A stretch of 64,000 nucleotides of DNA from Alphaproteobacteria bacterium (lineage in GTDB: Bacteria; Pseudomonadota; Alphaproteobacteria; Rhodospirillales; Rhodospirillaceae), in the NCBI GenBank assembly GCA_039908285.1, contig JAMOBE010000001.1, positions 21,155 through 85,154 of the forward strand. Direction: 5' to 3'. This document shows, in pieces, positions 2,160 to 7,371 of the stretch (position 1 is its first letter; the number at the start of each line of letters is the position of its first letter). The notes beneath the pieces were generated by a model. That model was not told the origin of the DNA and ran no database searches. It saw only the letters and a program-made list of their open reading frames with translations. Both the position numbers and the translations under genes were made by a program.

Positions 2160-3020
2160 TCAAGCCTGCCGCCGCGGACAGAAAAAAGTGGATCGGCCAC
2201 TCTGGACGATGCGCCGCACGCTGTCGGTCCCGCCGCAATCGCAGCCGGGACAAGGCTCGCCGGCACGGCCATAGACGGCGAAGGCGTGCTGGAACCGACC
2301 GATCTCGCCGGAGGGTTGGACGTGGTCGCGCAACGATGATCCCCCGGCGGCGATGGCCGCGATCAGGACCGTCCGGATCGCCCCCACCAGTCGTCGCAGC
2401 GAGTCGTGGTCGAGGGATCCGGCGGGGCGGTCGGGGGCGAGGCCGGCGCGGAACAGGGACTCGCAGGCATAGATGTTGCCGAGTCCGGCGACCACGCGCT
2501 GGTCCAGTAGCGCCGCCTTGAGGGGACCACGGCGGCCACCGAGGGCCGCTCCCAGCGCGTCGGCGTCGAAGGCCTGGTCCAGGGGCTCGGGCCCGAGACC
2601 ACGCAGCAGGGGATGACCGGCAAGGCCGGCCGTCTCCACCAGGTCCATCAGGCCGAAGCGGCGGGGATCGGTGTAGGTGACCACGACGCCGTTGCCGGTG
2701 TCGTTGCCGGTACCGTGGCTGGTGCGGAACTCCACGTGGTCATGGCGGCCGGGGGGCTCGGGCGCCGCCGCCGTGATCACCATCCGCCCCGACATGCCAA
2801 GGTGAACCAGGAGCGTCCAGCCGTCGTCGAGCCCGGCCAGGATGTACTTGGCCCGCCGGCCGACCCGCTCCACCCGCCGCCCGGTGAGTCGTTCGGCGAA
2901 GCTGTGCGGCAGCGGTCGGCGCAGATCGCCCCGCCGGCTCACCACCCGCGCGAACCTCCGCCCCTCCCACACCGCCGCCAATCCCCGGCACACCGTCTCT
3001 ACCTCGGGAAGCTCAGGCAT
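2160..3020 (-). CDS. mutM: Formamidopyrimidine-DNA glycosylase (Fpg/MutM)
   Basis: Starts [14 protein letters not shown] (catalytic Pro2/Glu3). Contains [20 protein letters not shown] (H2TH) and a C-terminal zinc finger, CPGCDCGG...FFCPRRQ. Confidence 0.95.
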
Positions 3021-3171
3021 GGGGTCCTATTCGTGATGGGCCGGCGGCCGCGTGGCGTCAATGCACCGTCGGGAATGATATCGCAGTCCGTGGGAACGCG
3101 CATCGCAATTCAGGCCGCCGGAGCGTGATACCGCCAACGCGCCGGCCGCAGGATCAGTGTGCGGGCTCTGA

Positions 3172-3376
3172 GGAAGAAACAGATAACACGGATGAACACG
3201 GATGTGAACGGATGAACACGGATGAGAGAGGAGTTGACAAATGGGCCGCTCCAGCAGTGTTTGTCTTATATTCATATAATAATACACAGTATATAAGCCC
3301 ATGCCCCGGTAAACTCCGTTCTAATCCGTGTTCATCCGTTAACATCCGTGTTTATCCGTGTTATCTGTTTCTTTCT
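3172..3376. repeat. CACGGAT decamer-array inverted-repeat element, complete copy 1 (MITE-like)
   Basis: The left arm (3173-3228) holds four tandem 10-bp units: AACACGGATG AACACGGATG TGAACGGATG AACACGGATG. The right arm (3320-3375) is its inverted copy. The arms flank a ~90-bp AT-rich core. Homologous to 8974-9229 and 22073-22168. Confidence 0.75.
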
Positions 3377-3409
3377 TGACGCAAGCACGGTGATGCCAGT
3401 CACACGGTC

Positions 3410-4759
3410 TCAATCCTCATCCATGCGCTTGATGACGCCCGTGCCATTATTGTGATGCGCACGCATGATGCAGCAGGGTACAGGCTCGCCGGCCTCCATC
3501 GTGCCGGTCCCTTTTGCAAGCTGACGCGATTCGGTCTTGACGACCTCGAAATCGTGACCAAGGTCGGAATCGTGGGCCGTATCCTCATGGGCCAGAACCT
3601 CACCCGCTCCGGCCAGACTCAAGAGCCGGGCGGCCAGGTTGACCGCATCTCCATCGATATCGGAGTGGCCGAGGGATTGATTGTGTCCCACGGTAACCTT
3701 GCCGCTGGCAAGGGCGGCATGGGAGCTTGGTCCCTCGATGGCGAGATGCGCCTGGAGATTGAAGGCAGACCGGAAGGCATCATTGACGTCGGGAAAGATG
3801 GCAATGACACAGTCCCCTTCCATGTTGACCAGCGTGCCCTCGCAGGTTTCAACAAGCGGCCGTGCCATGGCGCGCAGCATCGTCAACATATTTTCTCTTG
3901 CCGCGTCCTTCATTTTGGAAAAGCCAGTGACGTCAATGAACAAAACATGAATATACCTTTCGCCCGGGGCAACGGCCGGCTTTATTGGCTTCGCCATTTC
4001 GGCCTCCAACAGCATGTTCTTGATTCTCTCCTCATAGCTATCTGCTCGCCCTTTCTCGATAATCAGTTTTTTCTGGGTTGATTGCAGTTGTTTCGCTTTT
4101 TTCTGAATTTCTTCAAGGGACGTATCGCCCAGACTTTTCACCGCGATTTTGACCGTAGTGCCCCCTGGGCCGGTCGTGATGCTCTCGAGTTCCAGAACCA
4201 CGCCTTTCCCCGAAAGCTCCCGAAGAGCGCCAATCAGGCCCGACAGCGTGGTCAACTCCGTCCCGGTAATACCGTCCTCATAGCGAATAACAACAGCGTC
4301 ACGGATGTTGGAATCTGGGCGATAGGGGGGGTAGCCGGGGAATCCGTAATAAGTTGGAGGGGGATGGTGGAGGGGAATGGCAGAACTCATATCATCAATA
4401 GAATGCATTACGTAGTCCTTCATTCCAAGAGAATTTGTGACGTTCATGCTCTCATAGCTGCACGATTTACGGAGAGCTTCCGTAAAGCCTACCATTTTGC
4501 CTTGGTTCCCTATAATGTTCATTTCTTTGAGGATCTCTGCGGCTCTTTTCCCCATGAAGCTCTCTCCGACGCTTTTCCCCATGAAGCTCTCTCCGACGCT
4601 TTTCCCCATGAAGCTCTCTCCGACGCTTTTCCCCATGAAGCTCTCTCCGACGCTTTTCCCTATGAAGCTCTCTGCGGCGCCTTTCCCCATGAGGTCCTCA
4701 GTGAGGCTCTTCCCCGTAATGCTCCCGAAAATGTCCTTCAAGTGTTTTGGATCCGCCAT
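3410..4759 (-). CDS. Class III adenylate/guanylate (nucleotidyl) cyclase domain protein with a repeat-containing N-terminal region
   Basis: The C-terminal ~190 aa carry class III cyclase motifs: VLFIDVTGFSKM (metal Asp), NMEGDCVIAIF (second Asp) and GDAVNLAARL (Asn/Arg). A coiled coil precedes the domain. The N-terminus has GKSVGESFM x5. ATG 4759 lies 8 nt after AAGGAG; the track's 4765 start is a GTG. The gene is visibly AT-richer than its flanks. Confidence 0.8.
   Translation of the reverse strand: MADPKHLKDIFGSITGKSLTEDLMGKGAAESFIGKSVGESFMGKSVGESFMGKSVGESFMGKSVGESFMGKRAAEILKEMNIIGNQGKMVGFTEALRKSCSYESMNVTNSLGMKDYVMHSIDDMSSAIPLHHPPPTYYGFPGYPPYRPDSNIRDAVVIRYEDGITGTELTTLSGLIGALRELSGKGVVLELESITTGPGGTTVKIAVKSLGDTSLEEIQKKAKQLQSTQKKLIIEKGRADSYEERIKNMLLEAEMAKPIKPAVAPGERYIHVLFIDVTGFSKMKDAARENMLTMLRAMARPLVETCEGTLVNMEGDCVIAIFPDVNDAFRSAFNLQAHLAIEGPSSHAALASGKVTVGHNQSLGHSDIDGDAVNLAARLLSLAGAGEVLAHEDTAHDSDLGHDFEVVKTESRQLAKGTGTMEAGEPVPCCIMRAHHNNGTGVIKRMDED
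4545..4706. repeat. 27-bp coding tandem repeat (VNTR) inside the cyclase gene
   Basis: The unit CTTTTCCCCATGAAGCTCTCTCCGACG occurs four times perfectly (4545-4652), followed by two degenerate copies (4653-4706). It encodes the GKSVGESFM repeats. Confidence 0.95.
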
Positions 4760-4954
4760 GACCACCTCTCCTTGCTTTTCTCATCCTACAGGATCATGTG
4801 AGACGTGAACACAGGAATGGCTGTCCCTTGAATCTGGTGAACGGGTGACTGACAACATATTTTCTCTCCCTCTTCAAGCCACCGCATGCACACACGCTGG
4901 ACAGACGGGGCCGTAGGGAGTTCGCTGTAGAAACTATCCGTTTCCCGCAAAATA

Positions 4955-5118
4955 AAGCCCTCCCCCTCGATGGGGGAGGGTTTGGGTGGGGGTGATCGTG
5001 AAGCGCCTGCAGACGGCGGTACATTCGCACCAAGGCCGAGTTCTTGGGCGCATACCTATTCCACTGTTTGCGGCGCTGTCACCCCCACCCAACCCTCCCC
5101 CATCGAGGGGGAGGGCTT
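4955..5118. repeat. Inverted pair of REP hairpin units
   Basis: 4955-4995 reads AAGCCCTCCCCCTCGATGGGGGAGGGTTTGGGTGGGGGTGA. 5079-5118 is its near-perfect reverse complement. Each unit contains a CCCTCCCCC/GGGGGAGGG hairpin. Confidence 0.85.
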
Positions 5119-5166
5119 AAGCTTGCTCTCCCCTCGATGGGGGAGCAACCGTATTGTTGGGGGGTG

Positions 5167-5303
5167 TCCCTCCGTCCCGACCTGAGGCCAGCGTGCCGTC
5201 GTGCTCGCAGCCGTCAAGAGAAAAGTGCCGCAAAGAGGCGGCACTTTTCTCTTGACCGCCGCTGCGCGCGCCGGCCCCCTGACCTCAGGTCGGGACGGAG
5301 GGA
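5167..5303 (-). other. Highly structured non-coding segment 3' of the IS110 transposase (candidate IS-encoded ncRNA or nested palindromic element)
   Basis: A perfect 21-bp outer stem (5167-5187 with 5283-5303) encloses a perfect 19-bp hairpin (5213-5231, loop AAAGAG, 5238-5256). It lies 32 nt downstream of the transposase stop. Confidence 0.35.
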
Positions 5304-5334
5304 TGGTCCTTTCGGTCGAACAAAGGGATGGTTA

Positions 5335-6285
5335 TTATCTTTCTGGTTGCTCTTGCCACGTCGAGCCACTGGCAAGCATTGCGTTGAGGCGCACGGCCAT
5401 CTTGCGCATGCAGGCAACTAGAGCAACCTTTGGTTTTTTACCGGCAGCTATGAGTCGCCGATAGAATTCATTGATCACGCCTTTGGTGCGTGTCGCCGCC
5501 ACCATGGTTGCCATGTAGAGTGCCTTGCGCAGGTCTGCGCGTCCTCCCGCGATGTGCCGTTGGCCGTGAAACTGGCCGCTGTCGCGGTCGAACGGAGCGA
5601 CGCCCACCAGGGCGGAAATCTTGCCACCGGCAAGATGTCCAAGCTCCGGTAGCATGGCCACGATGCTGACGGCTGTGACGAAGCCGATTCCCGGCGCCGT
5701 TTGCAGAGCATCGGCCGTCTTGCCGAATTTGGCGTTGGCGGCTACCCGGCTCTTGATCTTGGCCTCTATGGATAGGATCGTGACGTTGTGATGTTCGATC
5801 AGAGCGTCCAGATCCGGCCAGGCCGCTTCGACGGCCGTTGCGCGCATCTTGACCAGGTCGGCGCGCCTGTCGGCCAGACCGGCACGGGTTCGAACCAATC
5901 CGGCCAGTTCTTCCCTGGCCGAGTCGATCGCCACCGCATCGGTCTCCGGCGTGAAAGCGGTGAACTCGGCAATTACGGCGGCATCGATCGGATCGCTCTT
6001 CGCCCGCCGTCCCTTGGCCTTGGCAAAGTACCGCACCCGGCTGGGATCGAACACCTGAACCGCATAGCCCGCCTTCGTCAGTTCATCACGTGCTCGCCGC
6101 TCATAACCACCAGTGGCCTCAAGGCCGACCCTCCGGACATCATGGGTGCCAACCCAACCCAACAGCTCCTGGAGACCAGCGGCATCATTCGTTACCCTGA
6201 TGATGTCTTTCGAGTGAGAGAGGGCAACATCCAGACTCTTTTTTCCACAATCAATGCCGACAGCGCGCTCAATCTGTGCCATCAT
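5335..6285 (-). CDS. IS110-family (DEDD) transposase/recombinase
   Basis: MMAQIERAVGIDCGKKSLDVAL... then VGLEATGGYERR, then the C-terminal ...LVGVAPFDRDSGQFHGQRHIAGGRADLRKALYMA typical of IS110/IS1111 enzymes. ATG 6285 lies 7 nt after AAGGAAGG. Confidence 0.9.
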   Translation of the reverse strand: MMAQIERAVGIDCGKKSLDVALSHSKDIIRVTNDAAGLQELLGWVGTHDVRRVGLEATGGYERRARDELTKAGYAVQVFDPSRVRYFAKAKGRRAKSDPIDAAVIAEFTAFTPETDAVAIDSAREELAGLVRTRAGLADRRADLVKMRATAVEAAWPDLDALIEHHNVTILSIEAKIKSRVAANAKFGKTADALQTAPGIGFVTAVSIVAMLPELGHLAGGKISALVGVAPFDRDSGQFHGQRHIAGGRADLRKALYMATMVAATRTKGVINEFYRRLIAAGKKPKVALVACMRKMAVRLNAMLASGSTWQEQPER

Positions 6286-6579
6286 ACTGGACCTTCCTTG
6301 TGGTTCGGGCTCGAAGCCCATGCAACCGTTCGGTTTTCAAGGAAGGATGGCCGCCGTCGTGCTCCCCCGCGGCTTTGTGCCAAGGGCTATGCGAGGTCGG
6401 CCATCCCGGACGGCGGGCTGCTGACCTGCCGTCCGGGGCTGATCATACCGGGCCTTCAATACACAAGGGCTTAAGCTTGCTCTCCCCTCGAGGGGGAGGG
6501 CTTGAGCAAGCGGGAAACCTGTGGGCATACGGATGGTTTGCTTTGTCTTTCCTCCTCACCTTGGGTATGGTGCCGGCCC

Positions 6580-7371
6580 ATGGAAACCGAGACCGATCAG
6601 AGCCGCGACGGCACCACCCATTTTGGCTTCCGCACCGTGGCGGCGGAGGACAAGGTGTCACTGGTGCGTGGGGTGTTCGACAGCGTGGCGTCCCGCTACG
6701 ACCTGATGAACGACCTGATGAGCGTCGGCATCCACCGCCTGTGGAAGGCGGCGCTGATCGACTGGCTGGCGCCCCGGCCGGGGATGGTCCTGCTGGACGT
6801 GGCCGGGGGGACCGGCGACATCGCCTTCCGCTGCCTGGACCGGCTGGCGGGGCGCGGGGAGGGACCAGGGGAAGTTCCGGGCGAGGTCATCATCTGCGAC
6901 CTCACGCCCGACATGCTGGCGGTCGGCCGCAACCGCGCCCTCGATGCCGGGCGGGTGCACGGGCTGACATGGGTGTGCGGCAATGCCGAGGCCCTGCCCC
7001 TCGCCGATGCCAGCGTCGATGCCTATACCATCGCCTTTGGCCTGCGCAACGTCACCCGCATCGACGCCGCCCTCGCCGAGGCGCGGCGGGTGCTGAAGCC
7101 CGGCGGGCATTTCCTGTGCCTTGAGTTCAGCCACGTGGTGATCCCGGTCCTGCGGACGCTTTACGACCGCTACTCCTTCACCGTCCTGCCGGCGCTGGGC
7201 CAGGTGGTCACCGGCGACCGCGACGCCTATCAGTATCTGGTGGAGAGCATCCGCCGCTTCCCGCGACAGGAAGATCTGGCGGCGCTCATCACCGCGGCCG
7301 GCCTGCGGCGGGTGTCGTTCCGCAATCTTTCGGGTGGCATCGCCGCCATCCACTCGGCATGGCGGATCTGA
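6580..7371 (+). CDS. ubiE: Ubiquinone/menaquinone biosynthesis C-methyltransferase UbiE
   Basis: [44 protein letters not shown] plus the SAM motif [13 protein letters not shown]. Start moved to ATG 6580 (METETDQ) because the 5' part of the track ORF overlaps the REP/IS end. Confidence 0.92.

Follow-up and report, generated by a model that had tools for sequence, protein, structure and literature searches.

What does a class III nucleotidyl cyclase gene of atypical composition do between mobile repeats in an alphaproteobacterial chromosome, and does its product still work? The gene lies at positions 3410 to 4759 of a 64,000-nucleotide stretch of contig JAMOBE010000001.1 (GenBank assembly GCA_039908285.1); "the window" hereafter means this whole stretch. 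A preliminary description, made from the sequence alone, had read the gene as a horizontally acquired signaling or defense-type cyclase with at best an incomplete link to the Pycsar anti-phage systems. The reading that we favor, at a probability of about 0.6, is that of a soluble, dimeric class III cyclase, horizontally acquired and probably active, most likely making cyclic AMP (cAMP), whose input has been lost or altered.

Acquisition, core architecture, and catalytic residues

The gene and the site at which it lies comprise the following features, where ORF stands for open reading frame and GC1, GC2, and GC3 for the GC content at the three codon positions.

2160..3020, minus strand: fpg (mutM), left edge of the interrupted conserved junction
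3153..3394, unstranded: decamer-array inverted-repeat element, resembling a miniature inverted-repeat transposable element (MITE), directly downstream of the cyclase stop codon
3410..4759, minus strand: cyclase ORF (P0001), 449 amino acids plus stop; GC 0.541, GC3 0.64
4765..4773, minus strand: Shine-Dalgarno-like AAGGAGAGG, read from the sequence, ending 5 nt before the ATG at 4759
about 4864..5150, unstranded: cluster of REP-type (repetitive extragenic palindrome) hairpins, upstream of the cyclase gene
5113..6491, minus strand: IS110-family element, transposase ORF at 5335-6321
6502..7371, plus strand: ubiE, right edge of the interrupted conserved junction

The ORF described before was confirmed, and its strand, left unstated there, is minus. 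It encodes 449 residues when counted from the ATG at 4759 and 451 from a GTG further upstream at 4765; the GGAG core of the Shine-Dalgarno-like sequence stands 8 nt upstream of the ATG. Its GC content had been called clearly lower than that of the backbone, and indeed it is 0.541 against 0.662 for the genome, within the lowest 1.2% of all 1350-bp windows genome-wide. The gap is also seen at third codon positions (GC3 of 0.64 against 0.85 to 0.93 in the adjoining fpg, ubiE, ubiB, and rpsT genes). Since GC3 exceeds GC1 and GC1 exceeds GC2 in all four parts of the ORF, the N terminus included, the entire frame looks coding.

The gene order in the window is dnaA, rpsT, fpg, the insertion, and then ubiE and ubiB. 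The genes fpg and ubiE adjoin each other in divergent orientation, 40 to 250 bp apart, in at least 11 of 14 related genomes; in the window some 3.5 kb separates them. The mobile elements that the preliminary description had placed around the gene (decamer-array MITE, REP cluster, IS110) are all there: the decamer array has inverted arms at 3153-3238 and 3309-3394, and the IS110 transposase ORF carries the DEDD_Tnp_IS110 and Transposase_20 domains. About 1.47 kb (3395-4863) separates the decamer array from the REP element, and the searched part of this interval, 4310-4863 (the N-terminal coding part plus about 100 bp upstream), is unique in the genome. None of the 14 relatives has an orthologue at the fpg-ubiE position, and a search of 60 relatives returned a single real homologue, 44% identical over residues 148 to 401, in a Hyphomicrobiales metagenome-assembled genome (MAG; G054) of a different family. 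On this sequence evidence, we conclude that the gene is horizontally acquired, because it shows a GC and GC3 deficit, interrupts the conserved fpg-ubiE junction by 3.5 kb, and has no orthologue in the 60 relatives apart from G054. The acquisition proposed earlier is thereby upheld, and the case that was to overturn it, an ordinary cyclase at a syntenic position in related species, is ruled out by the synteny of the 14 genomes and the search of the 60. The REP-type element at 4864-4960 has at least dozens of copies in the genome, at 80 to 90% identity and spread over many contigs.

Residues 151 to 436 form the well-ordered part of the protein, with an AlphaFold2 predicted local distance difference test (pLDDT) score above 90 for nearly all of them. 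Three parts can be distinguished, in which HMM stands for hidden Markov model.

4124..4306, minus strand: residues 152-212, family-specific alpha/beta module (beta-alpha-beta-beta); module HMM, pLDDT above 90
3992..4117, minus strand: residues 215-256, one long helix, presumed dimeric coiled coil; AlphaFold2 pLDDT 89-96, conserved in the family
3452..3964, minus strand: residues 266-436, class III cyclase homology domain; Pfam PF00211 at 20 bits, Foldseek, family profile

In the model, the module consists of a strand (155-160), a helix (166-183), and two further strands (188-197 and 200-209), followed by the long helix (215-256) and the cyclase domain (266-434). The last of these has the class III cyclase homology domain fold: Foldseek aligns it to the Rv1900c and Ma1120 domains with template modeling scores of 0.83 to 0.87 (E values of 1e-12 to 1e-10), and of all cyclases it is 1ybt (Rv1900c) that the family profile matches best (E value of 3.7e-25). 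Active sites of class III cyclases form at a homodimer interface, and the modeled long helix most likely forms a parallel coiled coil that makes the dimer. The module, which reaches a pLDDT of 92 when modeled by itself, is recognized in the window protein by its own HMM (E value of 1.3e-20, residues 152-226). Against the PDB, its sequence profile found nothing below an E value of 0.19, and its fold came closest, by Foldseek, to generic ferredoxin-like NIL, ACT, and PII folds, at an E value (0.095) that is not significant. Pfam did not match the module alone, and matched ACT weakly in one relative (E value of 0.02).

We then aligned the catalytic positions, counting conservation over 71 family cyclase domains.

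D276 (FIDVTGFS): first metal-binding Asp, 71/71
D316 (EGDC): second metal-binding Asp, 70/71
R378 (VNLAAR): transition-state Arg, 71/71
K416 (LAKG): phosphate-binding Lys, 70/71
D367: base-contacting Asp, 65/71
N374: ribose-contacting and transition-state Asn, 44/71
N312: position of the purine-specifying Lys, Asn in 71/71

All seven residues are retained in the window protein, including the metal-binding Asp pair, the Asn and Arg, and the Lys expected of a class III cyclase. The motifs first noticed (FIDVTGFS, EGDCVIAIF, and GDAVNLAARL) were confirmed and match catalytic positions of class III enzymes in the alignment; the earlier worry that key catalytic residues might prove substituted on proper alignment can be set aside. 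With all metal-binding and transition-state residues intact, a cyclic nucleotide is most likely still made.

Family members and their genomic contexts

To call the gene an orphan, as had been done, proved wrong. A phmmer search of 1.84 billion cluster representatives gave 68 matches at an E value of at most 1e-10, and about 45 among the matches listed align over residues ~150 to 432, a stretch that runs from the module through the coiled coil to the cyclase domain. The family counts about 70 representatives. The module HMM recognizes 38 of the collected proteins, and the HMM of the family cyclase domain scores members at 117 to 243 bits (194 for the window protein), against 111 bits for a paralogue in the host genome and at most 100 bits for the remaining cyclases outside the family. 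The constant core of the family is thus the beta-alpha-beta-beta module, a coiled-coil helix of about 40 residues, and the class III cyclase domain; both the beta-rich module, which could not be assigned before, and the coiled coil belong to it. Ahead of this core, the relatives carry either pentapeptide repeats that differ widely in length (PF00805, scoring up to 150 bits) or a ClpX-type C4 zinc finger (zf-C4_ClpX, PF06689), and a few have other heads or are truncated.

In a tree of cyclase domains, P0001 falls inside a family subclade together with P0174 (Shimodaira-Hasegawa-like approximate likelihood ratio support of 94), the G054 homologue, and P0026. The latter two have pentapeptide N termini, and P0174 is preceded by a pentapeptide ORF, P0123, of the same split gene. 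This split gene is the closest relative of the window gene (L030:5243-6609, JGI Ga0302190_10000377; 53% identity). Its overlapping ORFs part midway through the coiled coil, at an A7 run (CAAAAAAATTGA) where one extra A restores a single frame (QKKLISKDG), and the split was seen in two separate assemblies, L030 and L025 (Logan SRR11847918); it could reflect a pseudogene, phase variation, or transcriptional slippage. At the equivalent place, about 4076-4081, the window gene has an in-frame A6 run.

Three other sequences deserve mention here. The contig of the MAG homologue ends within its pentapeptide repeats (L013:6948-8048, G054:C23), which probably broke the assembly. In P0122 (432 amino acids), a short helical C terminus takes the place of the cyclase domain behind the pentapeptide repeats, module, and coiled coil, and the module may thus pair with other outputs. 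Finally, the host genome itself encodes a second, GC-rich family relative (G000:C48:5856-7355, plus strand; L003:514-2013), the paralogue at 111 bits, in which a long acidic linker follows the pentapeptide repeats and leads to a degenerate cyclase domain that has lost both metal-binding Asp residues (SLHLSGLS, AARTNAIVAAF). It is without module and coiled coil, has full-length orthologues in only 2 of 30 relatives, and may be a pseudo-cyclase with a regulatory role or possibly a partner in dimers.

The family is rare. It occurs in 2 of about 860 other genomes sampled (60 relatives, 400 of the class, and 400 of the phylum), and the module was found in 1 of the 400 other genomes of the class and in none of the 400 of the phylum. 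By tblastn, there was no family match in 72,556 plasmids or 50,697 phage records; a motif-based scan of IMG/VR gave no family member; a search for related loci gave one metagenome locus and no viral contig; and a scan of genome contigs returned only the already-known homologue. A word-index homology search was discarded: with a single protein as query it matched only itself, and with the alignment it was swamped by pentapeptide repeats. In the literature we found no description of a pentapeptide-headed or ClpX-zinc-finger-headed cyclase family, and Pfam has no model for the module. The family is therefore apparently undescribed; its architecture and Asn signature appear new, within a known enzyme class.

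Nine family loci were compared for their neighbors.

Window: fpg and ubiE
G054 (MAG homologue): rhodanese and aroC
G270: aldo-keto reductase and cysS
P0024: DegP-like protease and UvrD
P0025: NuoF-like protein and TldD
P0029: phage-type integrase, then hypothetical genes and DUF3631
P0031 and P0034 (two loci): leuD and leuB
L030 (closest relative): ppdK and MeaB-like GTPase

No neighbor gene is common to the nine loci, and the absence of an adjacent effector gene, reported before for the window, extends to the eight others. The genome-wide search for genes of cyclic nucleotide monophosphate (cNMP)-binding proteins proposed at the time gave 22 matches to the cNMP-binding domain in the host, none adjacent and the nearest about 25 kb from the cyclase gene. 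In all nine loci examined for composition (L013, L015, L018, L020, L021, L023, L027, L030, and the window), the member has a GC content 0.02 to 0.25 lower than the flanking DNA, which suggests either repeated recent transfer or a strong compositional constraint. The family behaves as foreign DNA in every host examined. The gap is extreme in L023 (0.44 against 0.69). P0031 (L020:6001-7104, GCA_013140995.1) and P0034 (L023:6001-6939, GCA_046295055.1) both lie between leuD and leuB. They belong to the ClpX-zinc-finger clade, the finger being present in P0031 and not in the called ORF of P0034, and their shared placement reflects either an insertion hotspot or vertical inheritance despite a very low GC content.

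These contexts bear on a possible, though unlikely, alternative: that the family is a single-gene conflict or anti-phage system, in which the variable N terminus is the bait and an invader protein switches the cyclase on. The bait would be a pentapeptide beta-helix mimicking DNA, a ClpX zinc-finger decoy, or, in the window copy, the repeat region, and the signal, or nucleotide depletion, would act through host cNMP receptors. The rare and patchy distribution, the low GC of all nine genes relative to their flanks, and the interchangeable N-terminal domains on a constant core are all in keeping with such a role. Furthermore, one member (P0029) directly follows a phage-type integrase in an island that also carries DUF3631, the window copy is inserted among mobile repeats, and published conflict systems are known to include cNMP cyclases as well as pentapeptide repeats (PMC7159879). 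However, most contexts are housekeeping genes, no partner or effector gene is conserved over the nine loci, and the family was not found in the plasmids, the phage records, or the IMG/VR scan. PADLOC gave no significant match for the window protein (best E value of 0.017) or for seven of the eight relatives tested, and adjoining genes had no PADLOC defense match other than a generic UvrD/GajB-type helicase. No defense-specific evidence was found. The bolder form of this idea, a new one-gene mobile sensor-cyclase with swappable baits on a constant chassis, a cNMP burst read by host receptors, and, in the window copy, a fast-evolving repeat bait whose copy number slippage can change, we regard as slightly less likely again. 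If true, the conflict role would make the family a new single-gene type of defense.

The N-terminal region and the fate of the input

The window copy differs from its relatives in what precedes the core, and the preliminary description had rightly singled out this input region as unusual.

4307..4759, minus strand: residues 1-151, lineage-specific low-complexity N terminus, nonapeptide repeats plus Pro/Tyr linker
4545..4706, minus strand: 27-bp tandem repeats, in frame, encoding GKSVGESFM; four perfect copies plus diverged ones

The GKSVGESFM repeats, the Pro/Tyr-rich linker, and the module of about 60 residues are all present as first listed; the repeats are encoded by seven 27-bp units, four of which are identical. 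AlphaFold2 gives a pLDDT below 50 for residues 1 to 150 (from a 29-sequence alignment), Pfam matches nothing in residues 1 to 255, and residues 1 to 150 have no counterpart elsewhere in the host genome. The pentapeptide repeats or ClpX C4 zinc finger of the family are missing, and the other two frames of the coding strand yield no pentapeptide reading in the N-terminal DNA. P0035, P0083, P0110, P0113, P0119, and others, which matched the nonapeptide repeats, were rejected as homologues, being unrelated low-complexity or neuropeptide-precursor-like sequences. In the whole protein, Pfam detects no PAS, GAF, HAMP, or cNMP-binding domain. The highest 19-residue Kyte-Doolittle hydropathy, 1.32, falls inside the cyclase domain, and a transmembrane (TM) segment is therefore not expected; the lack of a TM segment and of these domains, described at the outset, is in agreement with both results. 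According to the structure prediction, the usual sensor domain of the family appears to be replaced in the window copy by about 150 low-complexity, disordered residues. Because its nearest tree partners carry pentapeptide repeats, the window copy most likely descends from a pentapeptide-type ancestor whose head has since been replaced.

How such an enzyme might work can be outlined as follows. In the relatives, the head, be it a pentapeptide-repeat beta-helix or a ClpX-type zinc finger, would be the presumed input or partner-binding part. By analogy with other coiled-coil-coupled cyclases, the protein would be a parallel dimer, and head and module would govern how its two catalytic halves are arranged. 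In the window copy, the head would have been swapped for disordered, slippage-prone repeats with a recently amplified 27-bp unit, so that catalysis would be kept and regulation probably lost or changed. The product would most probably be cAMP, on priors only, and, as there is no dedicated partner gene, its receptors would be cNMP-binding proteins of the host itself.

Several observations weigh against this explanation. The PF00211 score of the window protein, 20.0 bits, is below the gathering threshold of 21.9 bits, which its relatives pass. A near-invariant Arg, Arg347, is His in the window protein and in only one other member, its closest relative. The substrate cannot be read from the sequence: purine specificity is set by a residue pair, Lys/Asp in adenylate cyclases and of the Glu/Cys type in guanylate cyclases, and the Asn312/Asp367 pair found in the window protein is neither. 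The proposed check of these residues was thus carried out and found the Lys absent; since the Asn is invariant in the family, the pair does not predict the substrate. The same position is Lys in 11 of 22 cyclases outside the family, and Asn at the aligned position in Rv1900c (VNTAGD against VNMEGD). Without the usual N-terminal domain, the protein could be deregulated or inert. Lastly, the consistently low GC and patchy spread of the family also fit a role in conflict or defense.

A further alternative is that the gene is a decaying remnant, which lost its sensor after transfer, gained slippage repeats, and is functionless or on its way to loss. We consider this distinctly unlikely. The family N-terminal domain is indeed gone and about 150 residues are predicted to be disordered, the perfect 27-bp repeats point to recent slippage, the closest relative is frameshifted at the A7 run, the conserved Arg347 is His, and the gene sits among mobile elements. 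However, the frame is open over 449 codons behind a strong ribosome-binding site, every catalytic residue is retained, the codon-position pattern (GC3 above GC1 above GC2) runs through the whole ORF including the N terminus, and AlphaFold2 confidence exceeds 90 across the core.

Far less probable is a Pycsar pyrimidine cyclase (PycC) whose effector was lost or lies elsewhere. In Pycsar, the gene next to PycC encodes the effector, in which a cNMP-binding domain is joined to a TM, TIR, or comparable killing domain; none is adjacent in any of the nine loci. The purine-specifying Lys is indeed missing from this class III cyclase, and weak PADLOC PycC matches exist (E values of 0.017 to 0.03), but the best of them, at 12.7 bits, is not significant and covers only residues 270 to 333. 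Among the eight relatives tested, a single one, P0050, had a partial PADLOC PycC match (E value of 4.4e-06, 24 bits). In the HMM, PDB-profile, and Foldseek rankings through which PycC was compared, no PycC structure appeared in the top 50 Foldseek or top 60 profile matches, which are led by canonical adenylate and guanylate cyclases (Rv1900c, Ma1120, CyaC). The N-terminal domain, module, and coiled coil are also unlike the PADLOC PycC models, the comparison having been made through those models only. A Pycsar assignment is therefore not supported, and of the earlier signaling-or-defense proposal, the acquired class III cyclase stands.

An ordinary housekeeping adenylate cyclase of the lineage is the least probable of all, and like the Pycsar assignment effectively excluded: the gene is chromosomal and near dnaA, and the host has several other class III cyclases, but there is no orthologue at this position in 14 relatives and one homologue in 60, the composition is strongly atypical, and the cyclase does not group with the host's own.

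The acquired cyclase with a lost or altered input thus remains our preferred explanation. The window copy is a natural "headless" variant for probing the role of the head, and defining product and trigger in the family would reveal a new input logic for bacterial cNMP signaling.

Comparison with known systems

The NTP-dependent conflict systems described by Kaur, Burroughs, Iyer, and Aravind in 2020 use cNMP cyclases as signaling parts and have pentapeptide repeats among their variable domains (PMC7159879). The family resembles them in coupling a constant module to variable domains, pentapeptide repeats included, and in its patchy distribution. Unlike these systems, neither the window protein nor the neighboring genes carry vWA, MoxR, VMAP, caspase, EAD, or TRADD-N domains. 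With PycC, the window protein shares the class III fold and the absence of the canonical purine-specifying Lys; it differs from PycC in its architecture, in having no adjacent effector, and in that PycC HMMs are not significant and PycC is not among the top structural matches.

The highest target scores in the fold search belong to Rv1900c (LipJ) of Mycobacterium tuberculosis (1ybt and 1ybu) and Ma1120 of M. avium (4wp9 and others). Both are, like the window protein, soluble class III domains of the homodimer type, although identity is only about 20%. Rv1900c differs further in having an N-terminal alpha/beta-hydrolase domain where the window protein has the module and coiled coil, and a His where the window protein retains the ribose-contacting Asn374.

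In overall layout, the window protein resembles the photoactivated adenylyl cyclases (PACs) bPAC and OaPAC, phytochrome-cyclase fusions, and soluble guanylate cyclase, all of which place a small alpha/beta input and a long helix ahead of a class III domain. Foldseek aligns the OaPAC and bPAC chains with the window protein over about 350 columns, although the root mean square deviation over the whole length is about 16 Å and topology alone is in common. Moreover, the window module bears no signature of BLUF, PAS, or GAF and matches no structure significantly, and between the helix and the cyclase domain lies a Pro-rich break. This likeness in layout suggests signaling through a dimeric coiled coil.

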